Counted from the stretch's first letter, positions 3,241-43,250 are shown. The stretch: DNA of 64,000 bases from Nitrospinaceae bacterium (GCA_965223665.1 OZ245011.1:3168001-3232000), one strand, 5' to 3'. The notes: a model not told the origin generated them from the letters alone. Numbers and translations are program-made.

Positions 3241-4311
3241 ATGCCTGGAAATACATTTGGACATTTATTTAAAGTGACTACCTGGGGTGAATCCCACGGA
3301 AAGGGTATTGGCGTTGTTGTTGATGGTTGCCCATCAGGATTACCTCTGGTTGAAAAAGATATTCAAAAAGAATTGGAACGTCGTCGCACAGGACAAAGTA
3401 AAGTCACCACCACCAGAAAAGAACCAGATCAAATTGTAATACTCTCAGGGGTTTTTAATGGAAAAACCACTGGGACCCCAATTGCAATGATGGTGGAAAA
3501 TAGTGATGCGGACTCATCAAAGTATGAGCTTATTAAAGATCTTTATCGCCCAGGTCATGCGGATTTTACTTATGATGAAAAGTTTGGATTTAGAGATTAC
3601 CGTGGGGGTGGTCGAAGTAGTGCAAGAGAAACAGTAGGGCGAGTAGCGGCCGGAGCCATTGCCAAAAAGCTATTGGCCCTTAAAAAAATTAAAGTTTTTG
3701 CCTACACAAAACAAATCGGAGAATTGGTGGCAAAAAAGTTTGACATAAAGGAAATTGAAAAAAATATTGTAAGATGCCCAGATAAAAAAGTTGCAGCGCA
3801 AATGGTTGATGCCATTATGAAAGTGCGCAAGCAAGGAGATTCTTTAGGGGGTGTTATAGAAATAATTGCTCAGGGTGTGCCAGCCGGGTTAGGAGAACCT
3901 GTATTTGACCGATTAGATGCTGAGTTAGCAAAAGCATTAATGTCCCTTCCTGCGGTTAAAGGGGTTGAGGTAGGGATAGGATTTGAGGCCGCGAAACTTA
4001 AAGGATCACAATGTAATGATATCTTTATTAAAAAAGGAAAAAAAATTACCACCAAAACAAACAATGCGGGTGGAATTTTAGGCGGGATTTCAAATGGAAA
4101 TGATATTGTTTTGCGAATGGTTGTAAAACCTACCTCTTCTATTAATCGGGTTCAAGATACCGTAAATCAAACCGGAAAAAAATCAAAAATCAGAGTGGAA
4201 GGTAGACATGATCCTTGTGTAGCACCTCGAGCAGTTCCCATGGCAGAAACTATGGTTGCTTTAGTTTTAATTGACCATTTATTTCTCCAGGAACATTCGC
4301 AGCTTAAATAA
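3241..4311 (+). CDS. aroC: Chorismate synthase
   Basis: GESHG, RPGHAD, GGGRSSARET and GRHDPC signatures. Confidence 0.98.
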   Translation: MPGNTFGHLFKVTTWGESHGKGIGVVVDGCPSGLPLVEKDIQKELERRRTGQSKVTTTRKEPDQIVILSGVFNGKTTGTPIAMMVENSDADSSKYELIKDLYRPGHADFTYDEKFGFRDYRGGGRSSARETVGRVAAGAIAKKLLALKKIKVFAYTKQIGELVAKKFDIKEIEKNIVRCPDKKVAAQMVDAIMKVRKQGDSLGGVIEIIAQGVPAGLGEPVFDRLDAELAKALMSLPAVKGVEVGIGFEAAKLKGSQCNDIFIKKGKKITTKTNNAGGILGGISNGNDIVLRMVVKPTSSINRVQDTVNQTGKKSKIRVEGRHDPCVAPRAVPMAETMVALVLIDHLFLQEHSQLK

Positions 4312-4344
4312 TAGCCCTCGAAAAGCTTCCTCCAAAAATTATAT

Positions 4345-5148
4345 ATGACAACCCCCTATAAAATTGGATTTTTACAAACCAATCCCCTATTTGGCAAGGT
4401 AGAAAGCAATCTAAACAAAATCGAACAATATTTCCAGAATGTAAACGCCAATTTGATGGTATTACCTGAACTTTTTAATACAGGATATCAGTTTAAAAGC
4501 ATTGAAGAAGCGAAAGCCATTTCGGAAGAAATACCAGCCGGGAAAACCACACAGTTTTTAATTAATTTAGCGCAAAAGACTCAATCGGCAATTATTGCAG
4601 GAATTGCAGAGATTGATAATGGAGCCTTATTCAACTCCGCTGTGATTATTGGTACGCAAGGTTTTATGGGAAAATACAGAAAGGCCCATATATTTGATAC
4701 AGAAAAAAAATTTTTTAATCCTGGAAATTTACCTTTAAAAACCTTTCAACTTGGCTCCGCCAATGTTGGGGTCATGATCTGCTTTGATTGGCGATTTCCT
4801 GAAGTTTCCCGTACGTTAGCGTTGAAAGGGGCGGACATTATTGCCCATCCATCCAATTTAGTTTTACCGCATTGCCCCCAATCTATGATTACCCGGTGTT
4901 TGGAAAATCGGATATATGCTGTAACCTCGGATCGCATTGGGACTGAAAACAGGATTACAGATGAATCCCTCAAATTTATAGGACAAAGTCAAATTGTTGA
5001 TCCTAATGGCGAAGTACTTTATCGGGCTTCACAGGACCAGGAAGAGATAAAAGTCATTGAAATTGATCTTGACCTGGCAAGAGAAAAGAAAATTAACCCA
5101 CACAATGATCTACTAAAAGATCGAAGAGAAGACCTTTACAGAGCGTAA
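4345..5148 (+). CDS. Nitrilase-superfamily carbon-nitrogen hydrolase
   Basis: Glu-Lys-Cys triad motifs LPELF, YRKAH and ICFDWRFPE. Confidence 0.9.
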   Translation: MTTPYKIGFLQTNPLFGKVESNLNKIEQYFQNVNANLMVLPELFNTGYQFKSIEEAKAISEEIPAGKTTQFLINLAQKTQSAIIAGIAEIDNGALFNSAVIIGTQGFMGKYRKAHIFDTEKKFFNPGNLPLKTFQLGSANVGVMICFDWRFPEVSRTLALKGADIIAHPSNLVLPHCPQSMITRCLENRIYAVTSDRIGTENRITDESLKFIGQSQIVDPNGEVLYRASQDQEEIKVIEIDLDLAREKKINPHNDLLKDRREDLYRA

Positions 5149-6296: not shown

Positions 6297-7133
6297 TTAT
6301 TTTTTATCCAAATTATAAACTAGAGGGATTCCATTAGTTCCCACCGGGATATAAACTGTAGTGTGATTTGGGGAATCTGCCATTTTATTCTGTGCGTTTA
6401 TAGCTTCATGCTGCAAATAATTTTTTGTTAATGTGGAGTTGATAATTTTCTGTGATTCCGCAATTCCCCTGGCCTCTTCTACTCGGATTTCGGCATTTTT
6501 TATAGCAATTTGTCGTTCAATTGCTTTTTTTTCCAGTTCTTGTTCAGCGGCTAGTTTTCTTTCCACAGCTTGAGCCACAGCTTGAGGATAATCTATATTG
6601 CCGACCACCAGTTTTAACAATTTAAATGGGGTTCCTTCTAAGTGGTTCCTAAGCTTTATCAAAACTTGTTGGGCGATTTTTTCTCGATTAGCTTTTATTT
6701 CTCGTGAATCGAAACTGTGGACAGCATCACGCACAAAAGATCGAAAAGGCTCCTTAACAAAACGAGCATACCAATTTCTTCCACCATAATTCTCCACGAC
6801 CTTTTGAATCGTCCCTTCTTGGATTTCAAAAACTCCCTGAAACCTAAAATTTACATTTAGATCATCTTTAGCAAGAATTTTAAACTCCTCATTCAAAGTC
6901 ATGGGGCGAAAATCAACATTTATGGTTCGGTTTCGCCAAAGTGATACGCCAAAATTTCCTGGCCCTTTCACCCTTCCTTTAAAACCACCATTTCCCCACA
7001 CTCGAGGTTTTTCAAATACATATCCTTCATGGCCTTCGGGTGTGTATGGATTGGTATAAATAGAAAAGAAAATAATTAGAAAGATAAAAATACACACTAA
7101 GCCAAATGTAAAAAAAATATTGGATGTTTTCAT
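6297..7133 (-). CDS. SPFH/band-7 (prohibitin-like) membrane protein
   Basis: N-terminal TM helix, band-7 core and an AVERKLAAEQE...EEARGIAESQ coiled coil; start moved to ATG 7133 after GGAG. Confidence 0.85.
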   Translation of the reverse strand: MKTSNIFFTFGLVCIFIFLIIFFSIYTNPYTPEGHEGYVFEKPRVWGNGGFKGRVKGPGNFGVSLWRNRTINVDFRPMTLNEEFKILAKDDLNVNFRFQGVFEIQEGTIQKVVENYGGRNWYARFVKEPFRSFVRDAVHSFDSREIKANREKIAQQVLIKLRNHLEGTPFKLLKLVVGNIDYPQAVAQAVERKLAAEQELEKKAIERQIAIKNAEIRVEEARGIAESQKIINSTLTKNYLQHEAINAQNKMADSPNHTTVYIPVGTNGIPLVYNLDKK

Positions 7134-7292
7134 ATCTCCCTCTTGTAAACGGAGGCCTTGATTAGCCATAAAATTATTCCACAATTTTTTTGTCCAAGCA
7201 TAGAATCGCTCGGGGAAATAATTTTTCACTTTATGATTAATGGGGTTCTGGTTTTTTTACTATTTTGTTGGGAAGGAAGTTAAATAGAATTT

Positions 7293-7916
7293 CTAAATAC
7301 TATTAATGTCGTAAACTAGTTCTTCACCTCGCAAAGCAGGCTCCTCGACTTTAATAAATAAATCTTTTAATTTCTCAAGCATATCAGTGTCGATGGCGCT
7401 GGTTCCACGGGATTGGGCGGTAATAGAATCAAAAAGATGTTGATAATATAATCGATACGTTTTCGCTAATATGATGGAATAATTGTTTTCTATTTCTTCA
7501 TCATAAAATCGATTTAATACACTTTGAATTAGGGTATATAAAGCTTCTGAATATAGTTGGAAATAAGCAGACTGTTTTTCAAATTCTTCAAAACGAATTT
7601 CATCTTGGTCACCTTTTAAATATTTAAAGATAACTTTTCCATCCACATCTGTATTTCTTTTAAAATATTCTTGCCACATCACCATATTTTTAATGTTTTC
7701 AATAAGAGTTTTTCTAAAGGCACATTTCTGATCTAAATGATTGTCTTTAGAACAAACATCGTTAACCACAGAAAAAAAAGCCTGGTGAACATCCCCATTT
7801 AACTGAGAGTTATTCTGCAATGCTTTTGCAAAAAGAAACTTTTTTTTAGCTTCTTCCTCGTTTGCGTATTGATCAAATATCCTTTGACCAAAATCTTTGA
7901 CAGTCCCTATATCCAT
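7293..7916 (-). CDS. Hypothetical helical protein
   Basis: 207-aa ORF with an AGGA SD; no family recognised. Confidence 0.7.
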   Translation of the reverse strand: MDIGTVKDFGQRIFDQYANEEEAKKKFLFAKALQNNSQLNGDVHQAFFSVVNDVCSKDNHLDQKCAFRKTLIENIKNMVMWQEYFKRNTDVDGKVIFKYLKGDQDEIRFEEFEKQSAYFQLYSEALYTLIQSVLNRFYDEEIENNYSIILAKTYRLYYQHLFDSITAQSRGTSAIDTDMLEKLKDLFIKVEEPALRGEELVYDINSI

Positions 7917-8211
7917 TGAATCCTTTCTTGGCCAATCTAAGTGTACAAGCAGATTAGCACGTCATTCCTCTAAGGTAAACAGGGACTCCTACTATATTCA
8001 AGAGGGAAAACTATGGGGAAAAAAGAAAAATATATTGTAAGAAAAATCGTATGCAAAAACTTTTGAAAAGGTCTTTGTTATCCTTATATCCTTCAATTGA
8101 ATAGTGAATTAGATAAATTATTTTTTTTAAAAAAACTTTGGAGATCTTAAAAATAATTGACTAAGAATTATTTTAAAATAAATCTTTAATATGATTTCAA
8201 GAAGTGGATTT

Positions 8212-9015
8212 CTAAAGTGGGCGTTGCGATTTTTTGACGATGTCTTTATCGAAATAATTAATGGACATTCCTGCATCGAGAACGATTCCCTGTGCATTAA
8301 TACCACTGGAGCGTTCACTTAATAAAAACACTGCTGTGTTGGCTACTTCTTGAGTGGTGAGAGCCTTTTTTCTTAGAGTCAATTGTTCCGCATGAAGGTA
8401 GGAGTCAATATAACCAGGAATACCCGCTGATGCAGAGGATTTAAGTAGACCTGCATTGACAGAATTAAAACGAATTTGTGAGAAGGTGCTGAAGGACTTA
8501 GCAAGAAAGCAAAGGGATGAATCCAGTGCCGCTTTTGCAGGCCCCATATAGCCATAGTTTTCTGCCGCCATTCGTGTTGTGGATATTGATACGGTAACAA
8601 TGGAGGCATTTTTATCAAACAATTCTTTAAATGCGTTGGCAAGTTGAATAAGTGAAAAACACGAAATATCCACGCACTGCAAAAAATCTTGTTTTTTAGT
8701 CTCGTGGAATGGCTTCAATCCTTCTGCAAAGTTTGCAAATGCAATCGAGTGGACCATTCCGTGAAGAACATCAGTTTCGTTTTTAATCTGATTTCGTAAT
8801 TTCTCAATTTCTTCAGACTTCTCAACGTCGCAAACGAACACCGGTGCTGGTTTTACCAAAGCTTCAGTACATTTTTTTCGATTTTCGCTGCGCACACTAT
8901 ATAGAACATTTGCTCCTTGCTCGGTAAGAGTTTTCCCAATATAGTGAGCCACACTTTTTTTGTTTGCCACCCCGGTGACTAAAATGGTTTTACCTTGCAA
9001 CTCAAGAAAGCTCAC
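8212..9015 (-). CDS. fabI: Enoyl-ACP reductase (FabI-like)
   Basis: [15 protein letters not shown] and YGYMGPAK (YxxMxxxK); GTG start overlaps the fabZ stop. Confidence 0.88.
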
Positions 9016-9437
9016 AGGCTATCCTCCATCATCATTGCAGTGAATTCAACTGAGCAAGCGAGCTTACCATTAACAAAAGCTTTGCCCTTAAGGTAATGAG
9101 CCGGTCCAATGGCCTCAACATGATTTACTTCCATTTCTAGTTGGTCACCTGGATAAACAGGATTCTTGAACTTTACATTTTGTATTCTAGTTAATACAGG
9201 AACGCCGGAAGGAAATCCTCCTAAACGTTTTGATATTAATATGGCTCCAGTTTGGAATACACTTTCACAAATTAAAACTCCCGGCATGATGGGATGATTG
9301 GGATAATGCCCTTTAAAAAAGGATTCGTCAGAATTAATTTGCTTGTGGGCTTTAATATATTGATCTGTTTGTTCCAGGATTTTATCAACAAATAAAAATG
9401 GAGGCCGGTGTGGAATAGAATTTTCAATTTCGTTCAT
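9012..9437 (-). CDS. fabZ: 3-hydroxyacyl-ACP dehydratase (FabZ-like)
   Basis: [11 protein letters not shown] and [19 protein letters not shown]; start moved to ATG 9437. Confidence 0.9.
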
Positions 9438-9439
9438 GG

Positions 9440-10183
9440 TTACAAACCTCCTGTAACTTCCAATACTGCACCATTGATATAAGATGATTCTCTGGAAGCA
9501 AGAAATAGTACACAATGTGCTACATCATCTACATTCCCAAATCGTTTTAGAGGAATTTGTTTTAAATATTTTTCCTTTTGGTCTTCAGACAAGTCAGCGA
9601 TAAACTCAGTATCAATAAATCCGGGAGAAACACAGTTGACAGTTATTTTGCGAGTAGCTACTTCTTTGGATAAGGACTTGGTAAGTGCGACTTGTCCCGC
9701 TTTGGTAGCAGCATAATTTGACTGACCAGGAAAACCAAATTTACCTATGGGGGAAGTGATATTAATGATTCGACCGTAGCGTTGTCGCATCAAATTCTGT
9801 ACTCCCAATTTACACATATGAAATGTTCCGGTGAGATTGGTATCTATGACTTGAGTCCAGTCCTCCTCACGCATCATCCCTAAAACTGAGTCCCGGCGAA
9901 TTCCCGAATTGTTTACTAAGATTTCAAATTTACCGAAGGATTCTTCAATAAACCTAAAAAAACTTTCAACCTCTGAAAATTGTGTTATATCAAATTGTTT
10001 TAGATGCAATTGATTTTTAAATTCTTTATTAGCTTCTAGAAATTTTTCAGCTGCTTGTTGATTAGCCTGAAAGGTAGCAACTACAGTTGCGCCTGCTTTT
10101 AAAAAGGACTCGACAATACCTCGACCAATGCCGCGGGTACCACCTGTTACAATTACAGTTTGGCCTGTAAAATCGAATTTCAT
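9440..10183 (-). CDS. fabG: 3-oxoacyl-ACP reductase (FabG-like SDR)
   Basis: TGGTRGIG, NNSG, YAATK and VSPGFIDT. Confidence 0.9.
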   Translation of the reverse strand: MKFDFTGQTVIVTGGTRGIGRGIVESFLKAGATVVATFQANQQAAEKFLEANKEFKNQLHLKQFDITQFSEVESFFRFIEESFGKFEILVNNSGIRRDSVLGMMREEDWTQVIDTNLTGTFHMCKLGVQNLMRQRYGRIINITSPIGKFGFPGQSNYAATKAGQVALTKSLSKEVATRKITVNCVSPGFIDTEFIADLSEDQKEKYLKQIPLKRFGNVDDVAHCVLFLASRESSYINGAVLEVTGGL

Positions 10184-10253
10184 GGATAAGGAAGATTAAA
10201 GGAAGAGAGTACCCAATATTCATTTAAAGAAACTGTATTGAGTAATTTTTTAA

Positions 10254-11702
10254 TTATACACTTACAACTTCTAGTTCTTCTTTTGGCGTATGGATCTTTT
10301 GTAAAAACTTGTCCACTTCGTTTGCGACTATTACGCCATAGTTTGCTGCACCCAACCAACCCGACATGATTATCCCAACTGATCCAGCATGAAACAAGCC
10401 AGCAATTTCTTTTGGTAGTTCTTTACTTACCTTGAGGCCCTCAAATTTGGTTCCAAATGAAACCCCTCCAGGGTGCTGGGTGTAACGTTTAAATGTTTTA
10501 GGGGTAGAAGCTTCTAAGTGACCTATCTTATTTCTAATTTCAGGTACATACCGTTCCAGGGCATTTAGAGTAGTTTCAATTAATTCCTGTTTCTTTTTTT
10601 TATATTCTTGTTCTTTCAAATGGGCCCAGTCCTGAAAACGGGCATTCGTGGAAGCTACGATGGCATACATTTTAGATCCGGGTCTCAATTCCGGGTAATA
10701 AAAAGAAAATGTTCTGCTAGTGGTATGAGGTTCTAAAAGCTTTTCAGAATCAAATTCTGGTTCTTGTGAAGTGAATAACAGATCCCCGATATTATCGATT
10801 TTTTCACCACGTTTTATTCCTATATATACTTGGCAACTACTGTCGTTCAGTCTTACCTTTTTTACTTCGTTCAGGTACTCTTCTGAGAAATGTTCATCTC
10901 CTGCCAATTTATGAATAGTTGTCAATAGGTTTGAATTAGACAGTACCGCATTAGAATGAACCTCTCTTCCATTAACCCTGACTCCAACAATCTTTTTATT
11001 TTCCACCAGAATTTTATCCACTAAGCAATGAGTGCGGATGTCCACTCCATTTCGAAGAAGTTCTTTTTTCATCTTTTTTATGAGAGCATTGGTTCCTCCC
11101 TCAAAGGTATAAACCCCTTTGTCCATGAAATTTGAAAATACGATACCATAAGTGATAGCAGGGTCATCTAATGTAGATCCATTGGCATACGTAATGGGTT
11201 CCATGAGAAGGCGATGAACATCAGTTCGTCCAGGGAAAAACTTTTCAAATAGATCCCGAGTGGTCATACTTAAGTCATCATAAAAATTCATTCCCCGAAC
11301 GGTAGTAAAAAAATCATCTATAGTTTCTTTTAAAATTCCAAATCGTTCGCGCATTAGGCGGGTGAAGTCCACCTTGTCGAAGGAGGTCATGAAAGAAAAC
11401 TGTGGATTATCAAATCGAATATTTTTAAGACGGATGATAGAATCAGCAATTTCTTTAGACCAGTATTTTCTACAAGTCTTAATCATACCAATTGGAAAGC
11501 CATGAAGGGAAATATCTAATATATGTCCCCCTTTTCGCTTAAACCAGGTAGCTAATCCTCCTAAATTATAATGATGCTCAAGGATCAGTACTTTATGACC
11601 CATTTTTGCTAATTTGTTTGCAGCAGTGAGTCCACCTAAACCGCTACCGATGATTATTGTGTCGTATGCTTGTTTTACTCCTTTTAACCAGTATTTCGAC
11701 AT
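10254..11702 (-). CDS. Phytoene desaturase / retinol saturase-like FAD-dependent oxidoreductase (2)
   Basis: IIGSGLGGL dinucleotide fold, [19 protein letters not shown] and GLFHAG. Start moved to ATG 11702, which overlaps the upstream TAA (TAATG). Confidence 0.85.
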
Positions 11703-13114
11703 TAAATTCTCCCGTATTCCGGTTTGCTTTGACCCTGCAAAACATGCAGATTGGCCATCGATATCCCACTCAGCGTCGCACCAATAATACCTAAAAATCC
11801 CTGATCTGTCCCACAAATAAACAAATTTCTGATGGGTGTGAATCCGTTTTTGACTTTTTTAGGGGAACCATAAACTGCACCATTGAGGTGTCCTGTGTAT
11901 TTTTTTATGGTTTTTGGCGTAAAAGTGTCTAAAAATACCACATGTTCCCGAAAATCGGGAAAAAATTTGAGCAAAGCTTCTACCGCCTGGTCCCTGCAGG
12001 CTTTCTTGGCAGCACGGTAGTCTTTACGAATCATAGAGTCCCAGAATTTAAAATTCGCTTGATTCGTCACGCGTATTATCCCCTCGAAATTGGAGCCATT
12101 ATAATTAAAATTATTGGGGACACATAATACCCCACTGGTTGTGTCGGTCAGTTTGTCTGGAACGCGATAATGAAATTGAGGTTCTGTACAATAGAACACT
12201 ATACTTTTATCATAACCGATTTTTTTTGGTTCACTACCTAAAACGAATAAAGATTCTAAAAAAGACATTTGTCCAATTTCATGATTTTCTAAGCCATCCA
12301 CATTAGGATCACAAAGTTTCATCGTTTCCACGTAACCCGCTGAGGATATTACTTTATCTACCTCAATATTTTCACCTGAATCTAACTGAATGGACTTCAA
12401 AACCCCGTTTTGGTGTCTGATTTGATTTACCCCGGCACCCATTTTTAATTCTCCCCCCAGGTTTTGGTATTTTTTTACCAACATATTAAGTATGGCGACC
12501 ATGCCATCCCGGGGGCGGGCGAACCCTTCCAAATAAACACTTTTAAACATGATGACGAATTGATAAAAATCCATATCATGCTCTTGAGCATTTCCATAAA
12601 ACATTAGGGGGCAAAATATCATATCGATCAAAAGTGGATCTGATAAATACTGATTTAAAACTTGACGGGAGGAAAGTTGCTGATGGTTATTTATGTCTAA
12701 CTCATTAAAACTCCTAATGTGATTTAGTAACTTGCGAAATCCATCAATTTGACTAGGGAATTGTTCAGCGACCTCCTGCTCAAAAAAACTAAAATCATTA
12801 TGAAACCTGAGTGATTTTCCCGGGAACCGGATTTCTGACATTTCTTGTTCGCATAATTGTAAATCTTCATGTTTCAATCGAAGTTGTTTGAGAAGTTTTC
12901 CAAGAGGGGAAGACCGCATTCCCTTAGGGGTGAAATTGGTCATAGCGTGCAAACCAACATCAAAAGTTCGGTTTTTTCTGACATAAAAGGAGTTGAGACC
13001 TCCGACTTCGACATGCTTTTCCACAATTAGTACCTTTTTATCGAAAAGCGCTAGTCGAATGCCTGCGGCCAAACCAGATAAACCGGCTCCTATTATCAAT
13101 GCATCGTAGGTCAT
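11702..13114 (-). CDS. Phytoene desaturase / retinol saturase-like FAD-dependent oxidoreductase (1)
   Basis: [34 protein letters not shown] and NLFICG. Confidence 0.85.
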
Positions 13115-13183
13115 GAAATGAATAATGAACCAGGAAACTTAATAAATCAATAGGTGGGAAAATTGAGAAAAATCAGAATTATT

Positions 13184-13447
13184 TTAGGTGACAGGCTCTT
13201 GATCCTGCAATCGGGGAAATAGATAAGCTATACAGCTCGACATACTGACAAGCTCAGGGTAATCGTTTTCAGGAACCTCCAAATTGTAACGTTTGCGTAA
13301 TTCCATCACGATGTCCAAAAAGTCCATGGAATCCAGGTCAAATTGGTCCCGAAGCTTTTCATCGTCTTTAAGCTTGCTTAAATCTTCATCTGGGGCAATA
13401 TCTGCAATGATATCAATTATCGCTTGTCGAACTTCGTCCCGGGTCAT
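13184..13447 (-). CDS. Acyl carrier protein
   Basis: Acidic 87-aa protein with LDSMD phosphopantetheine-attachment Ser motif; GGAG SD. Confidence 0.92.
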   Translation of the reverse strand: MTRDEVRQAIIDIIADIAPDEDLSKLKDDEKLRDQFDLDSMDFLDIVMELRKRYNLEVPENDYPELVSMSSCIAYLFPRLQDQEPVT

Positions 13448-13638
13448 CGAGCATAATCTCCTAAATTCTTGATCTTAGGGGAAAAGTCGCTAAATTTCAA
13501 TACTAATTTTAATTCTTTCCGGTTCTCCTTACCTTGAGTAGTTTTAATATTTGTTCCACCTCCTTATACTAATTGAATAACCCAAAAAAGAAGAGGATCT
13601 CATTATTTTAACCTTATCAGGTTCGACGGAGTTTTTAG

Positions 13639-14175
13639 GTGAAATCGTTAATTAAATTTGTTTTTATTGGATTTATTTTTATTATTTTTGTTGAGTTTGC
13701 ATTTAAGTTTTTGGCCACATTTAACCCCAAGGGCTATTTTATTGCTTCCATATTCTATCCTTTTTACCTGATCCTAATTTATTTTTTAAGCAGTCTCCTG
13801 GATAGAGTTTTTCCAAATAAACTGGTCGCCAATGTAATTGCATTTTTTCTATTTGGGTTTATGGGACTATTCATTGAATGGAATTTATTAGGGAATTCTC
13901 CCAGTGGAAATCCCAATGCCAACCAAATAGGAATGTTTGCTTTTTGGGCGGTGTATTGCTGTATGCCTCGTTTGTTTTTAGATTCGGAAACTTCTTCTAC
14001 CTTGAAGTTAAATATAAAGCGATTTTTTGGTTTAAATGTGATCGTTACTTTTCTTATAGCAGTTATATTGCATCAACCGGCTAAGTTTGTGGTGATAATG
14101 TACTTACAGGTTGTGGTTTATGTTTTATTTTCATTCTTCATTTTTTATTATTGGAAGAGTTTAGCGCAAAGATAA
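13639..14175 (+). CDS. Hypothetical multi-pass membrane protein
   Basis: About six hydrophobic segments, GTG start, opposite strand to the fab cluster. Confidence 0.65.
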   Translation: MKSLIKFVFIGFIFIIFVEFAFKFLATFNPKGYFIASIFYPFYLILIYFLSSLLDRVFPNKLVANVIAFFLFGFMGLFIEWNLLGNSPSGNPNANQIGMFAFWAVYCCMPRLFLDSETSSTLKLNIKRFFGLNVIVTFLIAVILHQPAKFVVIMYLQVVVYVLFSFFIFYYWKSLAQR

Positions 14176-14228
14176 CCCAGGCAAGTTTTATCAGGGTTTT
14201 TTGTATAGGTTTATGTATTTGGCAGAAA

Positions 14229-15461
14229 TTAAAATCGTTTTACGATTAGAACTGAATTAATTCCGAACATGCCAAAGGAATTGTTCATTATTACATCCAC
14301 CTGGTTCAGTAGTTCAGGTTGATTCGCCACAAGATTATTGAGTTGGCACTCGGGATCAATCTCATCCAAATTGATGGTAGGGTGAATATAGTTATCCTCA
14401 AAGGCAGGCAAATTTCCTGTAAGTTCCAATGCTCCAGCGGCACCCATAGTATGTCCAATGTAACTTTTGGTGTTATTGATTCTAGTTCGACCATTGGTCC
14501 CGAAGACTTCTCGAACGGCCTTACACTCTTGGATATCTCCCAGCTGAGTTGCGGTGGCGTGAGTGTTTAGTAATGCGATATCCTCGGGTTGTAATTCTGC
14601 ACGTTTCAAAGCTAAACGCATGCATTCGGCTTGGCGGTTGGGTTCAGGAAGGATATAGTCATACGCATCTGAGTTACTGGCATAACCAATTATTTCACCA
14701 TAAATTTTTGCCCCGCGTTTTTGTGCATCATCTAATCGTTCGAGTGTATAAAGACAACCTCCTTCGGAGCAAACTATCCCATTACGATTTTTATCAAATG
14801 GTCGACTGGCCTTGGTAGGGTCATTATGTTCTGCCAAGGCCCCTTCACTCTTAAAGCTTGCGAATATACCAAAGGTGTGGATACTTTCCGAAACACCTCC
14901 CGCGATGGCCATATCGACTTCACCTAATCGAAGCATTTGAACCCCCTGGATAAGCCCCAAATTCCCCGCGGCGCAAGCGGCTCCAATTGCATAGTGTGGG
15001 CCGGTAATGCCCATATTCAAGGTAACTTCTCCCGCAGGATTATTGGCTACTGTGCGTGGGTTGTGATGATGCGACCAATATTTGGTGTCATACTCATATT
15101 GGCTTATGTTATAGACTTCGTTTTCTGTTTCAACATTTCCATGCTCAGTTGTTCCTATGTAAACCCCAATCCGTGATTTGTCGAGAGCATCAAAATCAAT
15201 CGATGAATCAAGGACTGCTTCGCGGGAACAATAGACTGCAATTGATCCGGCACGTGTTCCGCGACGGACATCTTTTTTCTTTTGGTAACGCAGTTCATCG
15301 AAATCACACACCCCTGCAAGAACTTCACCCATGAATCGGGTTTTAAACTTTCGAACACCAGATTTACCTTCCAGCAATGATTTGCGAAACTCCGCTAAAG
15401 AATTACCGTTAGGTGCAGTAAGTCCAATTCCTGTAATTACAATACGATCATTTAATGACAC
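14229..15461 (-). CDS. fabF: Beta-ketoacyl-ACP synthase (FabF/FabB family)
   Basis: Catalytic Cys-His-His motifs GAACAAG, NTHATAT and IGHTMGAA; SRPFD; NSFGMFG. Confidence 0.9.
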   Translation of the reverse strand: MSLNDRIVITGIGLTAPNGNSLAEFRKSLLEGKSGVRKFKTRFMGEVLAGVCDFDELRYQKKKDVRRGTRAGSIAVYCSREAVLDSSIDFDALDKSRIGVYIGTTEHGNVETENEVYNISQYEYDTKYWSHHHNPRTVANNPAGEVTLNMGITGPHYAIGAACAAGNLGLIQGVQMLRLGEVDMAIAGGVSESIHTFGIFASFKSEGALAEHNDPTKASRPFDKNRNGIVCSEGGCLYTLERLDDAQKRGAKIYGEIIGYASNSDAYDYILPEPNRQAECMRLALKRAELQPEDIALLNTHATATQLGDIQECKAVREVFGTNGRTRINNTKSYIGHTMGAAGALELTGNLPAFEDNYIHPTINLDEIDPECQLNNLVANQPELLNQVDVIMNNSFGMFGINSVLIVKRF

Positions 15462-15614
15462 AAAATTATCCTAAAATGAAACCTCATGGGTTGGTTATTA
15501 TAGGCAGGTTTAAACTAAAAATCATTATATACGAAGAATTGGGAAATAGGGAGAATGGAGTTTTAAATAGTAATCTTAAATTTTAAAAGTTAAAGGCAGG
15601 ATACCAAAAATTAT

Positions 15615-16091
15615 TCAAATTTTCTCAATGAGTGCCACTGCGTATGCGGCCAGGCCTTCTTCTCGTCCAGGAAACCCAAGTTTCTCAGTAGTTGTTGCTT
15701 TTATATTGACTTGAAAGGGAGAAATACTGAGGGCTTTTGCGAGGTTATCCTTCATTGCGTTCATATAAGACGCTAACTTAGGTTTTTGAGCCACAATGGT
15801 AGAATCAATATTCATGATTTGAAAACCTTTTTCATTAACCATTCGTCCAACCTTTTCCAAAAGCACCAGGCTGGAAACACCGCGCCAACGAGGATCGGTG
15901 TCAGGAAAATAAAGGCCTAAATCGCCACCCCCACTAGCCCCAAGTAGGGCATCACAAATTGCATGGCATAAAGCATCAGCATCTGAATGACCCAAAAGCC
16001 CTTTAGGATGTGGAATTTCCACACCTCCTAAGATCAGTTTTTCGCCTTCTTCAAGGCGATGCACATCATATCCATTACCGACTCTAAACAT
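15615..16091 (-). CDS. ispF: 2-C-methyl-D-erythritol 2,4-cyclodiphosphate synthase
   Basis: GYDVH, GHSDAD and KATTTEKLG. Confidence 0.97.
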
Positions 16092-16283
16092 AAACTCTCT
16101 TTAAAGTTCATAATCCTTCACACTCATTTACCATTGTACCTAGAGTCGTCTTACCTCTACAATACTTTACTTAATCTTTTAGGAATTTTATGTTGTTTTC
16201 CCCAGATAATATTATTTTGCGTATTGAAAAAGCCAGATTCCATATTATTAAGGAACATTAGGTTCTAAAATAATAATCAAAAA

Positions 16284-17189
16284 TTAAGGACTTTCTTCAG
16301 TTTCACAACCGGGGGGTTGAGTTTTGCAAATATAGGTAAGGTGTTTATCCGTTTTGGAATTTTCCAATGGCCAAATACGTTCATCAATAAATCGAGCCAG
16401 GGTGGAAATCTTAAACTCTTTCACAGACTGAGGAACTCTTAAAACAATAAAAAATCTAATTTCATCATTAATTAAATCATCTGAGGCAATCATCCAACGA
16501 CTACGTGGCAGGTTCACCCCTGTAGTCGCAATTTCAACTTTTTCGATATCGTAATTACCTTCCCATTGAAAATTAAAATCTTGTTTTCCTTTGGCGGCAG
16601 CCTTGGCATGGTTCTCACCTATTAGTTTTTTACCAATGGCCAGTTGAAAATCCCCTCCTAAATTTATTTTTGTTTCCCCTCCCAATGTAAAAAGAGATTT
16701 CGTTTTGCTGGCGGGTAATTTGGAAAAAGTAGAAACTTTATTAGGGGAGTATTTCAGTTCAAAAATTAAGACATCAATATCCTCATATTTTTTGGTTTGA
16801 ATCGATAATCCCGTTTCTAAAAAGAAAAATTGATCTTTGGTTTGGTCAACAAGAGCTTGAGCATTGGATTCCAATGGTTTATTTTCTCGCTCCATTTTTT
16901 GGACATAATCAAACAGGATGGGGTTTGAAACAATTTCTGAGTCTGCACCCGGAGGGGTAAAAAATCCACTTTTTGTGGGTCGTTTTTGTAATTTTTCCTG
17001 GGCATTGAGAGTTAAAAGGTTTTTCTCTTCCTCAGACAAATCCTCCAAACCTTCAGACCAGGATTGGACAACCTGTTCCTCAGTTGCAGTTTCAGCGAAT
17101 ACAGGAGAATTTGCGAAAATGAAAATAATAAATATGCCAAGTAGAAAAAGGAAGTGGCAAAAGAGGATGGTTTTTTTATTGGAATTCAA
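16284..17189 (-). CDS. Hypothetical exported protein
   Basis: Signal-peptide-like N-terminus (..SPVFA|ET); 301 aa; two C-terminal Cys. Confidence 0.7.
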   Translation of the reverse strand: MNSNKKTILFCHFLFLLGIFIIFIFANSPVFAETATEEQVVQSWSEGLEDLSEEEKNLLTLNAQEKLQKRPTKSGFFTPPGADSEIVSNPILFDYVQKMERENKPLESNAQALVDQTKDQFFFLETGLSIQTKKYEDIDVLIFELKYSPNKVSTFSKLPASKTKSLFTLGGETKINLGGDFQLAIGKKLIGENHAKAAAKGKQDFNFQWEGNYDIEKVEIATTGVNLPRSRWMIASDDLINDEIRFFIVLRVPQSVKEFKISTLARFIDERIWPLENSKTDKHLTYICKTQPPGCETEESP

Positions 17190-23950: not shown

Positions 23951-26900
23951 TTATTGCGAGTAAGTAATAGTGATCTTAGGTCTTTTTGAAGAAGCTTCAC
24001 TGGAATTAAAACCAATTCCATTGTTAGACCCATTAGAACGGATAATGAATCCTCGATTCCAAATACTGCCGTCGATCCAACCTTGAACTATGTTTATACC
24101 ATTCTGATTCAAAAAGATTTCCTGTTCATTGAAAATGTTAGATGGAATGGTGCCCAAAATGGTCGATCCAATTTCGCCGGATCCGCTAAATTCATTCCAA
24201 TCAACGGTGCTTTCAGACCAGGAGGATTTGGCTTCATACAAATGATGGTCAGCCGAACTACCATCTGAAATGTTAAAGGTCATACTGACGGATTGGACAA
24301 CAGCATTGCTGGGAATAGAAGACAAGTCCCATAAGATAACACTCATAACTTCCCCATAATTTCCGTTTGAAGGATCAGAGGCCACCCCGTCAACTAACAA
24401 TATGTTATCGTTTCCGACATTCGAGTTTGGAGAAGTTTCTCTTAAGGAAGCATCTCTAGTACCTGAATAACCGTCCACCCCATTTTGAAGGCTAACTGTG
24501 TTTCCACCTCCAACGGAATAAGTAATAGTGATCTTAGGTCTTTTTGAAGAAGCTTCACTGGAATTAAAACCAATTCCATTGTTAGACCCATTAGAACGGA
24601 TAATGAATCCTCGATTCCAAATACTGCCGTCGATCCAACCTTGAACTATGTTTATACCATTCTGATTCAAAAAGATTTCCTGTTCATTGAAAATGTTAGA
24701 TGGAATGGTGCCCAAAATGGTCGATCCAATTTCGCCGGATCCGCTAAATTCATTCCAATCAACGGTGCTTTCAGACCAGGAGGATTTGGCTTCATACAAA
24801 TGATGGTCAGCCGAACTACCATCTGAAATGTTAAAGGTCATACTGACGGATTGGACAACAGCATTGCTGGGAATAGAAGACAAGTCCCATAAGATAACAC
24901 TCATAACTTCCCCATAATTTCCGTTTGAAGGATCAGAGGCCACCCCGTCAACTAACAATATGTTATCGTTTCCGACATTCGAGTTTGGAGAAGTTTCTCT
25001 TAAGGAAGCATCTCTAGTACCTGAATAACCGTCCACCCCATTTTGAAGGCTAACTGTGTTTCCACCTCCAACGGAATAAGTAATAGTGATCTTAGGTCTT
25101 TTTGAAGAAGCTTCACTGGAATTAAAACCAATTCCATTATTATTTCCATCGGTCCGTATAACAAAACCTCTATTAGAAATGCTTCCATCAACCCAACTTT
25201 GAACCAAATTTACACCACTCTGATTTAAAGGAATTTCTTGTTCATTAAAAAGATTAGGGCCAATTGTTCCTAGGATAGCAGAACCGATATCACCAGAATT
25301 ATTAAAGTCGTTCCAATCAACCGTACTTTCAGACCATGAAGATTTGGCTTCATGAAAATAATGGTTTCCAGAACTGGCATCTGAAAAGTTTAGTGTCACA
25401 CTGACGGATTGGACCACCGCATTGCTGGGAATTGAAGACAAATCCCATAAGAGCACTGACACTACTTCCCCATAAGAACCATTTTCAGGATCGGGCGCAG
25501 TACCATCAACCCATAGGAGACTGTCGTTTCCATAATTGGTGTTTGGAGAAGATTCTCGCAACAAAGCGTCTCTTGTTCCGCTATAACCGTCCACCCCATT
25601 TTGAAGGCTAACTGTGTTTCCACCTCCAGGAGGGGGCGGTGGCGGAGGAGGAGGTGGCGGACTTCCGCCACTAAAAGTCGAATTTTCATTTATATTAAAT
25701 TGAATTCCTGGACTTGGAATGGGCAAATTCGCTGCATAGTCTTTGACATTAACCACGGTTAATACTTCGGATCCTGTGGCTGATGAGGATGTAGTTAATC
25801 GAACCACTCTTGGATCACTAAGCCGAACGGCACTGCTTATGGATACACCGTTATCTAACGAATAATTGCTTTTAGTTTCAGCACTCGATTTATGGACGGG
25901 TTCTGAAAATTGCACATCCAGTTTTGTACTATTAATTCGGTGCACCGCAAAAATTGCAGGGGGTGCCACATCACCAGATTTTGCAATGGTGAACTTATCG
26001 CGAATCAATCCATCGTCATCCAGGAACTGGGCTTCCATTCGATTAGCGTAGATATCTAAAATCATAGAACCCAGGATGGCATCTCCATAATCATATTCAG
26101 TGTACATAATGGGATGCATTGGGGATCCATTGGTGGACTGATGACGGCTGGATATTCCCATAACGGCATACACCGTTCCGGTATTACCAGATTTTATATA
26201 GGCTCCATCTGCTCCTGATTCCGGAAATGATTTTCCATTGCTGGAAGTGATTTTACTTCCATTATTTGTTAGAAAGGAACGTTCATACCAGTGATTATTT
26301 CCACTCAATACTAAATCGACACCATGAGACTCCAGGATTGGAACGATATTTTCCCGTAATTCGTTTGGAATTAAGCTGGTGTTATTAACTGCATTGGAGT
26401 AAGGAGGATTGTGAAAGATGCAGATAATCCAATCCTGGTTTGTTGAACTCAAATCATCATCCAACCAATTTACCATTGCAGATCCGGAATTGCGGGGTCG
26501 AGTCAGAGAATTTAAAACTACTATATGGATATTGTTGTAATCGAAAGAATAATAATCTTCGACACCGGAAGACACTCCCCCATTTTCTCCATTCTTAGGA
26601 AATTCAAAATTATTGAAAAAAGGACCTGCTTGAGTGTTTACATCTGAATAAGGTTCGCCATCTGAGAATGTGGTGTATATTGGAGTGTCTTTTAATATTT
26701 CTGAAATTGCATTAAACAATCCACCCTGATACGCCCCATCGGAGCCTTCCCAAAAACCTCCATTGGTATAAGCATTATCACCTAGGGCAAATAAGAGATC
26801 CGCTCGCCGTTTTTTTGTGTAATTTTTAAAGGAATCACGAACTTTGGCCGCATTAGCATCTCCGGTACCCGAATCACCAATAACCCATATTCGTGTTGGT

Positions 26901-27346
26901 TGTGGGCTACCGCCACCAACGGGTGTCATAAAACTACCCCGGGCAGAGGACTCGTTTAATGGAGAGCTTGAAGTTCCAATTTCATAATAATATCGAGTGC
27001 CGGGACTCAAATTAGTTAAAGTAACTGTATGCTCTAGCAAGTTTCCACAACTACTGCACAAAGAAACGCTTTTGGGGTCGGAATCGGATTTAACAGCGCT
27101 GTAATTTTGGGGAAACTCGCCATAGTGAACACTCTTATAGGAGGACTCTGAAGTGCTCACTCTCCATTTAACTACCACACTCGTGGGACTTATTTTTTGT
27201 AAGTATGGACCCCGATCAACTGTACCAGCGGTGACTTCTAAAACATGGAGAAGTAGAAAGGCAACGATAAGAAAAGTGTGAAGTAAATAAGGAAAAAGAT
27301 GTTTTTGAGTTTTTTCTGTAAAACAAAATTTCACGATATACCTCAT
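23951..27346 (-). CDS. Secreted purple-acid-phosphatase-like protein: FN3 + metallophosphoesterase + Ig-like + Pro11 linker + 3 DNRLRE/CBM96-like modules
   Basis: Signal peptide, RGPYLQ, IGDSG, LGDNAY, FHNPPY, poly-Pro, and three modules running YSGTRDA...SSEASSKRPKITITY. Confidence 0.82.
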   Translation of the reverse strand: MRYIVKFCFTEKTQKHLFPYLLHTFLIVAFLLLHVLEVTAGTVDRGPYLQKISPTSVVVKWRVSTSESSYKSVHYGEFPQNYSAVKSDSDPKSVSLCSSCGNLLEHTVTLTNLSPGTRYYYEIGTSSSPLNESSARGSFMTPVGGGSPQPTRIWVIGDSGTGDANAAKVRDSFKNYTKKRRADLLFALGDNAYTNGGFWEGSDGAYQGGLFNAISEILKDTPIYTTFSDGEPYSDVNTQAGPFFNNFEFPKNGENGGVSSGVEDYYSFDYNNIHIVVLNSLTRPRNSGSAMVNWLDDDLSSTNQDWIICIFHNPPYSNAVNNTSLIPNELRENIVPILESHGVDLVLSGNNHWYERSFLTNNGSKITSSNGKSFPESGADGAYIKSGNTGTVYAVMGISSRHQSTNGSPMHPIMYTEYDYGDAILGSMILDIYANRMEAQFLDDDGLIRDKFTIAKSGDVAPPAIFAVHRINSTKLDVQFSEPVHKSSAETKSNYSLDNGVSISSAVRLSDPRVVRLTTSSSATGSEVLTVVNVKDYAANLPIPSPGIQFNINENSTFSGGSPPPPPPPPPPPGGGNTVSLQNGVDGYSGTRDALLRESSPNTNYGNDSLLWVDGTAPDPENGSYGEVVSVLLWDLSSIPSNAVVQSVSVTLNFSDASSGNHYFHEAKSSWSESTVDWNDFNNSGDIGSAILGTIGPNLFNEQEIPLNQSGVNLVQSWVDGSISNRGFVIRTDGNNNGIGFNSSEASSKRPKITITYSVGGGNTVSLQNGVDGYSGTRDASLRETSPNSNVGNDNILLVDGVASDPSNGNYGEVMSVILWDLSSIPSNAVVQSVSMTFNISDGSSADHHLYEAKSSWSESTVDWNEFSGSGEIGSTILGTIPSNIFNEQEIFLNQNGINIVQGWIDGSIWNRGFIIRSNGSNNGIGFNSSEASSKRPKITITYSVGGGNTVSLQNGVDGYSGTRDASLRETSPNSNVGNDNILLVDGVASDPSNGNYGEVMSVILWDLSSIPSNAVVQSVSMTFNISDGSSADHHLYEAKSSWSESTVDWNEFSGSGEIGSTILGTIPSNIFNEQEIFLNQNGINIVQGWIDGSIWNRGFIIRSNGSNNGIGFNSSEASSKRPKITITYSQ
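23961..25138. repeat. Apparently exact 558-bp tandem duplication (about 2.1 copies) within the CDS
   Basis: taagtaatagtgatcttaggtc recurs at 23961, 24519 and 25077; the shadow ORFs at 24083 and 24641 are identical. Confidence 0.95.
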
Positions 27347-35223: not shown

Positions 35224-35282
35224 TACTAATATTGGTCAGGAGTGTCAGGGTTTTCAATAAGAAGAAAATAATTATTTAATTT

Positions 35283-35837
35283 CTAAAACTCTATTCCTTT
35301 TTGTGCAGGAATTTTCTGATCTTTAAAAGGATGTTTAATGCACTTCATCTCTGTTACCAAATCGGCGATTTCAATTAATCCCTTGGAAGCGTTTCTACCG
35401 GTGCAAACGATATGGACACTTTTCGGTTTATTTTTAAGAGCATTTAAAAATTCACTTTCTGGTAAAAATTCATAATGGAGTACATAGTTAATTTCATCCA
35501 GAATGACTAATGAGTAATCCTCACTCATAATTTTAGAATGTGCGATTTTCCAGGCTTTGCTTGCGGTTTCAATATCTTGATCACGGTTATTGGTGTCCCA
35601 AGTGAATCCATCTCCCATGGGTACAACCTCTATAAGGGAAGGAAACTTTTCCAGACTTTTTCTTTCTCCGGATTTCCATTGGCCTTTCATAAACTGCATT
35701 ATGAATACTTTCATTTTGTTTCCAGCAGCTCGTATTGCCATTCCAAAGGCTGCAGTGGATTTTCCCTTTCCATCGCCAGTATTCACAATTATTAGCCCCT
35801 TACGTTTTCTGGGATCAGAACCGGGTCGTTTTTTCAT
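35283..35837 (-). CDS. cobO: Cob(I)alamin adenosyltransferase (CobO/BtuR type)
   Basis: TGDGKGKSTAAFG, QFMKG, GFTW, LDEIN, TGR and KHPF. Confidence 0.95.
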   Translation of the reverse strand: MKKRPGSDPRKRKGLIIVNTGDGKGKSTAAFGMAIRAAGNKMKVFIMQFMKGQWKSGERKSLEKFPSLIEVVPMGDGFTWDTNNRDQDIETASKAWKIAHSKIMSEDYSLVILDEINYVLHYEFLPESEFLNALKNKPKSVHIVCTGRNASKGLIEIADLVTEMKCIKHPFKDQKIPAQKGIEF

Positions 35838-35865
35838 GGGAGATGGCCACTCCTTATATTAATAT

Positions 35866-36456: not shown

Positions 36457-36468
36457 TTGTATTCTCCA

Positions 36469-38307: not shown

Positions 38308-38339
38308 AATCTTTCCTTTCTCTCGAAGGCAATAGATTT

Positions 38340-40054: not shown

Positions 40055-40069
40055 AATTACTTAGTGGTC

Positions 40070-43157: not shown

Positions 43158-43250
43158 TATAAGTATGAAAAATTTTTTCTTAATTAATGGGCATCCTGCC
43201 TTTTAATTATTAATTCAATTTTGGGGTTACTAACTTAATTCTTAAAAGAG

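Follow-up and report, generated by a model that had tools for sequence, protein, structure and literature searches.

What does a bacterium make when a ketosynthase, a carrier protein and the reductive enzymes of type II fatty-acid synthesis (FAS-II) are encoded side by side with two flavoproteins that resemble carotenoid-modifying enzymes? The question is raised by a seven-gene cassette at positions 8212-15461 of a 64-kb stretch of DNA from a Nitrospinaceae bacterium, here called the window; FlvA and FlvB are labels coined here for the two flavoproteins. Few O2-free routes to cis-unsaturated or polyunsaturated acyl chains are, to our knowledge, available: FabA/FabB and their variants, FabX, and the Pfa megasynthase. 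Comparison with related loci suggests that the cassette is a variant of FAS-II, uncharacterised biochemically, and neither a ladderane pathway, a carotenoid pathway nor a canonical fab locus. The reading that we favor, at a probability of about 0.55, is that it encodes a dedicated type II synthase whose flavoproteins place or isomerize double bonds on chains borne by an acyl carrier protein (ACP) without O2, and that in other organisms its products feed olefin synthesis. Action on chains bound to the cassette ACP is the stronger claim of the two.

Genes and protein families of the cassette

The seven-gene FAS-II cluster reported by the first-pass annotation is present as described. All of its open reading frames (ORFs) lie on the minus strand and encode the expected Pfam and NCBIfam domains.

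14229-15461, minus strand: KS, a FabF-like beta-ketoacyl-ACP synthase and the first gene of the cassette (410 aa; Pfam ketoacyl-synt N- and C-terminal domains)
13184-13447, minus strand: dedicated ACP with its phosphopantetheine Ser in the motif LDSMD (87 aa; PF00550)
11702-13114, minus strand: FlvA, which belongs to the CrtI/CrtISO (amine-oxidase) superfamily of FAD-dependent oxidoreductases (470 aa; PF01593, PF13450)
10254-11702, minus strand: FlvB, a second FAD-dependent oxidoreductase and FlvA paralog (482 aa; Amino_oxidase and NAD_binding_8)
9440-10183, minus strand: FabG-like 3-oxoacyl-ACP reductase (247 aa; adh_short_C2)
9012-9437, minus strand: FabZ-type 3-hydroxyacyl-ACP dehydratase, of the His/Glu and not the FabA type (141 aa; FabA-like Pfam domain)
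8212-9015, minus strand: FabI-like enoyl-ACP reductase with a GTG start (267 aa; PF13561, adh_short_C2)

The Cys-His-His triad of KS, the LDSMD motif of the ACP, the overlap of the flavoprotein genes and the tight coupling of FabG, FabZ and FabI can all be read directly from the sequence. The TAA stop of FlvA shares a base with the ATG start of FlvB (TAATG), 2 nt separate FabG from FabZ, and the TGA stop of FabZ overlaps the GTG start of FabI (GTGA). The FlvB/FabG spacer measures 70 nt, and the spacer between KS and ACP 781 bp. Domains of phytoene synthase, prenyltransferase, radical-S-adenosylmethionine (radical-SAM) enzymes or methyltransferases occur in none of the window ORFs scanned, as had been noted earlier. 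Calling the cluster self-contained goes further than the evidence: FabD, FabH, 4'-phosphopantetheinyl transferase (PPTase) and a chain-release enzyme are all missing from the 64-kb window. It contains no plsX either. An Rfam scan of positions 7000-17000 gave no match at E ≤ 0.1. A promoter scan returned 27 sites (28.9 in shuffled sequence) and a terminator scan 8 (6.5 in shuffled sequence), and because these counts are near the shuffle level no operon boundaries were drawn.

The catalytic residues are invariant among orthologs from related loci, counted after removal of rows that contain a stop or X or that fall below 90% of the query length. This holds for Cys163, His301 and His337 of KS (58/58), Ser40 of the ACP (55/55), His44 and Glu58 of FabZ (30/30), Tyr154 and Lys161 of FabI (24/24), and Ser144, Tyr157 and Lys161 of FabG (17/17), as well as for the GxGxxG glycines of FlvA (73/73) and FlvB (37/37). 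Relative to the closest related locus, L001, the ratio of nonsynonymous to synonymous substitution rates (dN/dS) ranges over the seven genes from 0 for the ACP, which is 100% identical (dN 0), to 0.073 for FabZ; the value for FlvB, 0.007, is close to the 0.008 of ispF. All seven genes are intact and under strong purifying selection, and it is these undamaged catalytic motifs and low dN/dS values that confirm the original observation.

FlvA and FlvB share 24% identity (BLASTP, E 5e-25) and align with an hhalign probability of 100% over 426 columns; they are full-length paralogs. For both, the top named model is that of the carotenoid isomerase CrtISO/CrtH (TIGR02730), with 102.4 bits for FlvA and 104.3 bits for FlvB against an equivalog cut-off of 586.9. 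The CrtI-family model (TIGR02734) gives 64.7 and 79.8 bits, below its cut-off of 238.1, and CrtD (TIGR02733) is also among the best named models. The best solved relatives of the FlvA profile are CrtD (4rep) and CrtI (4dgk) at about 87 bits; those of FlvB are weaker. Because the scores are far under every cut-off, FlvA and FlvB are members of the amine-oxidase superfamily that stand outside its described families. With CrtI, CrtD and CrtISO they share the FAD-binding amine-oxidase fold over a full-length alignment, and the chemistry of those enzymes is dehydrogenation or redox-neutral isomerization of C-C double bonds in long hydrophobic chains. They differ in their scores (65-104 bits against cut-offs of 238-587), in their partners, which are KS and ACP and not phytoene or squalene synthase, and in their substrate, presumably a thioester-bound fatty acyl chain.

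The Fab-like proteins are off-type as well, with only FabZ and a FabG subfamily model passing NCBIfam cut-offs. FabZ scores 137.7 bits with NF000582 (cut-off 113) and 27-32 bits with FabA models, and FabG scores 254.7 bits with the subfamily model NF009466 (cut-off 222) and 284.2 with TIGR01830 (cut-off 297.75). KS reaches 333.6 bits with the fabF model TIGR03150 (cut-off 493.75), FabI 179.8 bits with the best FabI model (cut-off 391) and the ACP 37.9 bits with the best ACP model (cut-off 66). A sequence search of the PDB placed neither the ACP nor KS notably near any special entry. Since FabZ is of the His/Glu type and lacks FabA-like isomerase features, an isomerase would be needed from elsewhere.

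Several known identities were tried and rejected. A housekeeping fab locus does not fit, with KS, ACP, FabI and FabG all under their equivalog cut-offs. Nor does a Pfa-type synthase of polyunsaturated fatty acids (PUFA), given the discrete proteins, a KS score of 84.6 bits against 1010.1 for TIGR02813, and a dehydratase of FabZ type. For an aryl-polyene or flexirubin system, the FlxB model (241 bits against 340) and an ApeI-like model (21.5 against 28.5) both fail, and no second KS resembling a chain-length factor (CLF) is present.

Distribution of the cassette and its linkage to ole genes

A scan with the FlvA profile over one genome per GTDB species returned at least 605 stretches, of which at least 599 were confirmed, and the best 80 were taken as loci L001-L080. 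About 21 kb was visible per related genome; synteny was scored by tblastn with the window proteins, counting loci with enough flank. Among representatives of 50%-identity clusters, 4875 FlvA relatives were found at E ≤ 1e-3 and 270 at E ≤ 1e-30, and the best 150 contained no FlvA-FlvB fusion (the longest has 531 aa); a heterodimer of the two, suggested in the first-pass annotation, is a possibility. FlvB had no match among plasmids. The closest FlvA relative, in L001, is 93% identical and also from Nitrospinaceae, and the organism names of the 120 FlvA matches listed are all Nitrospina, Nitrospinae, Nitrospinaceae, Nitrohelix or Nitromaritima. The 80 loci themselves range more widely: going by record titles, 11 belong to Nitrospinota, 5 to Chloroflexota (Dehalococcoidia), 58 to Planctomycetota (including Pirellulaceae, Planctomycetaceae, Phycisphaerae, Rhodopirellula baltica and Novipirellula), 5 to Smithella-type or other Deltaproteobacteria and 1 to an Opitutaceae. 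Bdellovibrionota (Halobacteriovorax, Bacteriovorax) appear among the relatives listed for queries with the N. gracilis ortholog and with Smithella FlvA.

The pairing of flavoproteins with KS and ACP is far from confined to this one genome. Among the 66 loci whose flanks are long enough, 51 have KS no more than 3.5 kb upstream of FlvA; for the ACP, 61 of 78 have it within 1 kb of FlvA. FlvB is present in 33/62 loci, comprising 9/9 Nitrospinota, 3/3 Chloroflexota, 3/4 Deltaproteobacteria and 18/46 Planctomycetota. Where FlvB is accompanied by at least 5 kb of downstream sequence, FabZ follows in 27/29 loci, FabI in 24/29 and FabG in 13/29; FabG is missing from all 16 Planctomycetota loci of the 29, and a cassette FabG is found only outside that phylum. 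The full set is present in all nine Nitrospinota loci with enough flank. Neither KS nor ACP was found, despite at least 3 kb of upstream sequence, in 13 loci, namely 12 from Planctomycetota and the Nitrospinota locus L003, which retains FlvB-FabG-FabZ-FabI. Most of the lone-FlvA cases group on the FlvA tree in two clades, one of Planctomicrobium and one of Pirellula.

The one-strand order KS-ACP-FlvA followed by FlvB-(FabG)-FabZ-FabI is seen in the window, L001, L002, L012, L013, L016, L047 and others, and recurs in Nitrospinota, Chloroflexota, Planctomycetota, Smithella-type Deltaproteobacteria and an Opitutaceae. This conservation of order across five phyla, together with dN/dS values of 0-0.07, places the arrangement beyond chance. 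Identity to the window across phyla is 61-71% for KS, 57-69% for FlvB, 57-70% for FabI and 48-58% for FlvA, and FlvB orthologs have a mean column identity of 72%. Pairwise identities of FlvA, FlvB, KS and FabI are correlated across loci (r = 0.86-0.91), as joint inheritance would predict, although correlations of this kind are also pushed up by relatedness itself. For FlvA, a quick maximum-likelihood tree of 74 rows, built after the exclusion of 8 that contain a stop or X, mirrors taxonomy: Nitrospinota, Chloroflexota, Smithella and Planctomycetota each form a clade of their own. On the strength of the high cross-phylum identity, the correlated identities and the taxonomy-like tree, the cassette is an old unit, inherited largely vertically and co-inherited across phyla, and not a chance neighborhood.

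In phyla other than Nitrospinota, oleABCD-like genes and the cassette are found in one operon-like block, a new result that was absent from the first-pass annotation. With ole-like genes called at fixed identity thresholds within the fetched flanks, at least one was found in 25 of the 80 loci: 4/5 in Chloroflexota, 4/5 in Deltaproteobacteria and 17/58 in Planctomycetota. By simple arithmetic, rather than by a computed control, this is far over the expectation for a random 20-kb neighborhood and a four-gene system that occurs once per genome. In Smithella-type loci FlvA and FlvB are separated by a full oleABCD-like set. The order in L047, L056 and L078 is KS-ACP-FlvA-OleA-OleB-OleC-OleD-FlvB-FabG-FabZ-FabI, on a single strand with gene ends that abut or overlap, and L074 has the same order up to OleB, where the contig ends.

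The four genes inserted in L047 encode a KAS III-like protein, an alpha/beta-hydrolase, an AMP-ligase and a reductase of the 3-beta-hydroxysteroid dehydrogenase type. The OleA-like protein scores 394 bits with PRK09258 (cut-off 285), the OleB-like protein matches models of haloalkane-dehalogenase-type hydrolases, and the OleC-like ligase scores 623 bits with PRK09274 (cut-off 478). Two olefin beta-lactone synthetase models give 487-489 bits for the OleC-like protein, short of their cut-offs of 850 and 900, and two models of 2-alkyl-3-oxoalkanoate reductase (OleD) give 377-401 bits for the OleD-like protein, short of 580. Over the loci the scores range from 489 to 607 bits for OleC-like, 361 to 401 for OleD-like and 394 to 456 for OleA-like proteins. 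Linkage takes other forms elsewhere. The Planctomycetota order, exemplified by L025, is OleC-OleD-KS-ACP-FlvA-FlvB-FabZ-FabI with a divergent OleA-like gene (in L025, 607, 388 and 433 bits for the OleC-, OleD- and OleA-like proteins), and in Chloroflexota an OleA-like gene (456 bits, PRK09258) lies directly ahead of KS. All 120 matches listed for this Chloroflexota protein are at least 83% identical, and the organism names among them are all of Chloroflexota type; 3 of the 120 relatives listed bear the JGI name acyl-CoA:acyl-CoA alkyltransferase. Taken together, these arrangements suggest that the cassette probably feeds head-to-head olefin synthesis in other phyla.

Further genes adjoin the cassette in some loci. 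Directly after FabI, the Chloroflexota loci L012 (15023-15592) and L013 (10070-10627) carry a PPTase gene, and this adjacency supports a private carrier-protein system. Extra pairs of FabF-like genes and FabZ-like genes lie beside the cassette in L047 (4819-7330, minus strand) and L043 (17030-19505); in L047 two KS genes are adjacent, one with a weak C-terminal domain, and are reminiscent of KS/CLF pairs.

A proposed pathway and its alternatives

In the proposed pathway, ordinary rounds of KS, FabG, FabZ and FabI would extend a chain held on the dedicated ACP. In particular rounds, an ACP-bound trans-2-enoyl or saturated intermediate would be intercepted by FlvA and FlvB and isomerized or dehydrogenated, supplying the isomerase function that a His/Glu FabZ would not; the resulting cis double bond would escape FabI and persist through further elongation. 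More speculatively, the presence of two flavoproteins would fit two kinds of double-bond placement for methylene-interrupted polyenes. CrtISO carries out a redox-neutral isomerization with reduced FAD, and chemistry of that kind would suit a route that operates without O2. Smithella and Dehalococcoidia are strict anaerobes, and O2 independence fits because their loci carry the cassette. In carriers of ole genes, the acyl product, unsaturated or polyunsaturated, would pass to OleA for head-to-head condensation to long-chain olefins (such as C31 polyenes); in this Nitrospinaceae it would pass to ole genes elsewhere in the genome or to membrane lipids. That the flavoproteins act on ACP-bound acyl chains, as the first-pass annotation proposed, is the best inference, because they are syntenic with KS and ACP, their scores with carotenoid models are below the cut-offs and no gene for making an isoprenoid substrate is found in the scanned loci.

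The general idea has a precedent. FAS-II clusters that include phytoene-dehydrogenase-like genes were reported by Rattray et al. (2009; PMC2649909) from Kuenenia stuttgartiensis (kuste3336/kuste3607) and Desulfotalea psychrophila (DP1860/DP2405/DP2406). By their account, D. psychrophila makes C31:8 and C31:9 hydrocarbons, and no polyketide route to PUFA is encoded in its genome. Their proposal was a new, anaerobic extension of FAS-II to PUFA or polyunsaturated hydrocarbons (PUHC) that includes the tandem pair DP2405/DP2406 (PMC2649909). The term undescribed, applied to our locus at first, therefore holds for the cassette, which is uncharacterised biochemically, but not for the idea (PMC2649909). 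Those clusters and the present one have in common type II fab genes and flavoproteins of the amine-oxidase fold, a tandem pair included; theirs contain, in addition, genes for radical-SAM enzymes and SAM methylases, a CoA-ligase-like gene and divergent KS paralogs, and the proposal is made without oleABCD (PMC2649909). Supplements aside, we found no paper that characterizes the cassette or describes its linkage to ole genes. The oleABCD genes were themselves described later than the 2009 proposal.

A more ambitious version of the favored reading, which we advance only tentatively, is that the cassette is a dissociated, flavoenzyme-dependent polyunsaturated synthase, a second O2-independent solution beside Pfa, in which FlvA and FlvB position the double bonds and OleABCD turns the chains into C31-type polyenes. 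Reportedly, Sukovich et al. found C31:9 in Planctomyces maris and Opitutaceae TAV2 in 2010. The same hydrocarbon is described as characteristic of Gemmataceae (PMC7397252), and P. maris, Rhodopirellula, Blastopirellula, Opitutaceae and Desulfotalea all go unnamed in the main text of a survey of pfa-like clusters (PMC3098273). The OleA of Shewanella is fed by the Pfa synthase (PMC6463001; PMC4882568). On the favored reading the cassette would resemble that system, as a dedicated synthase with its own carrier that delivers an unsaturated chain to OleA without O2 for head-to-head condensation; the synthase and ole genes are often linked. They differ in that Pfa is a type I multidomain protein with FabA-like dehydratase/isomerase domains and no flavoprotein of the FlvA/FlvB fold, whereas the cassette encodes discrete proteins and the isomerase role would fall to FlvA/FlvB. 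The phyla with known ole genes, namely Proteobacteria (Deltaproteobacteria among them), Planctomycetes, Verrucomicrobia, Chloroflexi and Actinobacteria (PMC7158056), largely overlap those bearing the cassette, and a Nitrospinaceae metagenome-assembled genome with oleC is on record (PMC10176705).

A number of points weigh against the favored reading. No ole gene occurs in the flanks of 55 of the 80 loci, among them all 11 from Nitrospinota and the one from Opitutaceae (a 5-kb contig), and none is found in the 64-kb window; where such genes are present, the OleC-like and OleD-like scores remain under the curated NCBIfam cut-offs (850-900 and 580). Of the 46 Planctomycetota loci with at least 3 kb of downstream sequence, 28 lack an adjoining FlvB. 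Within this window the cassette has neither a thioesterase nor an acyl-CoA ligase, FabD, FabH or PPTase, and the presence of FabI shows that some cycles are fully reduced. DP2405/DP2406 are only candidate orthologs of FlvA/FlvB; with Smithella FlvA as query, no Desulfotalea or Kuenenia name appears among the 120 matches listed. Phytoene-desaturase-like genes from anammox bacteria, encoding proteins of a different cluster, gave no PUFA in E. coli in the experiments reported (PMC10139942). Finally, the Nitrospinota cassette follows the housekeeping block frr-uppS-cdsA-dxr-ispF, a context that fits a role in membrane lipids at least equally well.

This context and the lack of ole genes in Nitrospinota loci make an O2-independent route to ordinary monounsaturated membrane fatty acids the chief rival, though an unlikely one. 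The cassette would then replace FabA/FabB, FabM or FabX: the flavoproteins would make a cis-3-enoyl-ACP for KS to elongate, and the ole linkage would merely reflect a shared use of unsaturated chains. Retention of the full set in all nine Nitrospinota loci with enough flank, a constraint on FlvB that equals that on IspF (dN/dS 0.007 and 0.008), the position behind frr-uppS-cdsA-dxr-ispF in a membrane-biogenesis block and the need of a His/Glu FabZ for an isomerase from another protein are all as expected of such a housekeeping route. The FabX of Helicobacter pylori, of unrelated fold and with FMN and a [4Fe-4S] cluster, is a single enzyme that works with the housekeeping ACP and FAS-II and has no ole linkage. 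As a flavoenzyme dehydrogenase/isomerase that acts on acyl-ACP to start unsaturated synthesis, it is nonetheless the nearest functional precedent for FlvA/FlvB and lends the monounsaturated route some weight (PMC8626469), as does the report that PUHC are isotopically similar to particular 16:1 and 18:1 isomers (PMC2649909). A simple branch of housekeeping FAS-II would not, however, need a private divergent ACP and private FabG, FabZ and FabI; the universal retention of two distinct flavoproteins points to more than a single type of step; and in Smithella-type loci the ole genes are embedded within the cassette.

Somewhat more doubtful again is the possibility that FlvA and FlvB are saturases or tailoring enzymes, catalyzing RetSat-like reduction or a hydration-linked or conjugating isomerization on some specialized ACP-bound product other than membrane fatty acids or olefin precursors, such as a signaling lipid or a pigment-like polyene. 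Among named models, carotenoid isomerase and CrtD come closest, rather than CrtI itself, and every score is near 100 bits; 55 of the 80 loci have no ole gene nearby; and a cassette with its own ACP recalls secondary-metabolite systems. Such clusters do not typically have the largely vertical inheritance and very high cross-phylum conservation seen here, though, and the cassette is not accompanied by any conserved tailoring, export, regulatory or release gene, in addition to which the FlxB and ApeI-like models fail as given above.

Carotenoid, squalene and ladderane roles are effectively excluded by scores, partners and distribution. It is highly improbable that FlvA and FlvB serve a carotenoid or squalene pathway and have fab genes simply as neighbors, a notion for which superfamily membership and ispF, directly upstream in 7/11 Nitrospinota loci, might be taken as isoprenoid hints. 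The scores are 4- to 9-fold under every carotenoid-family cut-off, no phytoene or squalene synthase is present in the window or the scanned loci, ole genes are interleaved with the cassette, and the adjacency KS-ACP-FlvA is kept in five phyla against Nitrospinota alone for that of ispF.

The chance of a ladderane-type pathway is negligible: the ingredients KS, ACP, FabZ and a phytoene-dehydrogenase-like gene are shared (PMC10139942; PMC4790861) and one locus, L017, is labeled Kuenenia, but the cassette has no B12 radical-SAM enzyme, KS/CLF-like pair or SAM methylase, L017 has a gene order unlike the published kuste clusters, and the anammox cluster is reported from ladderane producers alone (PMC10139942), whereas carriers of the cassette include Nitrospinota, Chloroflexota, Pirellulales and Smithella, among others. 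That anammox cluster comprises amxACP, amxFabZ, two FabF proteins, a phytoene-dehydrogenase-like protein and a B12 radical-SAM enzyme (Dietl et al., 2023; PMC10139942). A private ACP, FabZ, KS and phytoene-dehydrogenase-like gene are thus together in both systems (PMC10139942); the cassette differs in having no radical-SAM enzyme, a single KS with an intact triad and no KS/CLF pair, two flavoproteins, FabG, FabI and a wide spread among non-anammox carriers. Javidpour et al. (2016; PMC4790861) showed that neither of the two kuste proteins can substitute for CrtI when lycopene is made. Locus L017 (6914-9829), labeled Candidatus Kuenenia stuttgartiensis, contains only KS-ACP-FlvA, and its FlvA nests among those of other Planctomycetota. 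The label calls for caution because the order is unlike kuste3335-3352 and kuste3603-3608; L017 may be a further locus or a misbinned contig.

Surroundings of the cassette and significance

Two further features adjoin or interrupt the cassette in the window.

15615-16091, minus strand: ispF, encoding 2-C-methyl-D-erythritol 2,4-cyclodiphosphate (MEcPP) synthase of the methylerythritol phosphate (MEP) pathway (TIGR00151, 212.6 bits against a cut-off of 116.45)
13639-14175, plus strand: hydrophobic 178-aa ORF in the KS-ACP spacer, with no Pfam or NCBIfam match

The ispF gene lies 153 bp upstream of KS on the same strand. Since its position ahead of KS recurs in no other phylum, it is probably a conserved neighbor specific to Nitrospinota and not a member of the pathway. 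The block frr-uppS-cdsA-dxr-ispF runs into the cassette in L009-L011, and frr-uppS-cdsA lies upstream in L002; in this window a 301-aa unknown protein and TrhP are encoded upstream of ispF.

The KS-ACP spacer contains an AT-rich insertion of about 620 bp (window positions 13520-14140; GC 0.325) that is missing from L001, where the spacer measures 158 bp. The 178-aa ORF within it has a GC fraction of 0.317, compared with 0.38-0.44 for the cassette genes, several hydrophobic stretches and a GGAG 7 nt ahead of its GTG; it has no tblastn match in the 80 loci. The ORF thus belongs to a strain-specific insertion and is not a conserved part of the cassette. Only short repeat pairs at chance level were found around the insertion. 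In L005 (Nitrospina; 3459-4718) the same spacer holds an inserted gene for a 419-aa TPR-repeat protein, and for this reason insertions seem to recur in this spacer.

Outside the cassette the window carries unremarkable chromosomal genes (among them rpsA, aroC, glyQ, smc and genes for the cobalamin lower ligand), with no further fab, ole or carotenoid genes elsewhere in its 64 kb. The cobalamin lower-ligand and salvage block at 34162-40822 encodes a CobT-like phosphoribosyltransferase, a CobO/BtuR adenosyltransferase, a TonB-dependent receptor, CobS and a 419-aa fusion of CobU with a nitroreductase-family domain. Two adjoining paralogs at 41931-44426 both contain a GGDEF diguanylate-cyclase domain and, at the C terminus, a PilZ domain, and are followed by a 450-aa leucine-rich-repeat protein (44602-45954). 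A 1131-aa protein at 23951-27346 has purple-acid-phosphatase/metallophosphoesterase domains, three CBM96 modules and disaggregatase-like repeats.

If the favored reading is correct, the cassette would add a further O2-free solution to the problem of unsaturated chain synthesis, built from a discrete FAS-II set and two flavoproteins of the CrtI/CrtISO fold, and the flavoprotein superfamily would gain a thioester-bound fatty-acyl substrate. The 2009 hypothesis for Desulfotalea and Kuenenia would become a defined seven-gene unit, small enough for expression. The cassette would also provide the missing precursor arm for C31:9-type olefins in bacteria that are ole-positive and pfa-negative; in the more ambitious version of the reading it would explain such hydrocarbons in pfa-less Planctomycetota, Opitutaceae, and Desulfotalea-like and Smithella-like bacteria. 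Its carriers, Nitrospinaceae, Pirellulales, Dehalococcoidia and Smithella, are abundant in oceans, sediments and anoxic systems, and the products could matter as biomarkers, in the marine hydrocarbon cycle and for unsaturated oleochemicals. In that more ambitious version, the Nitrospinaceae, which are the main marine nitrite oxidizers, would be an unrecognized dark-ocean source of polyunsaturated lipids or hydrocarbons.

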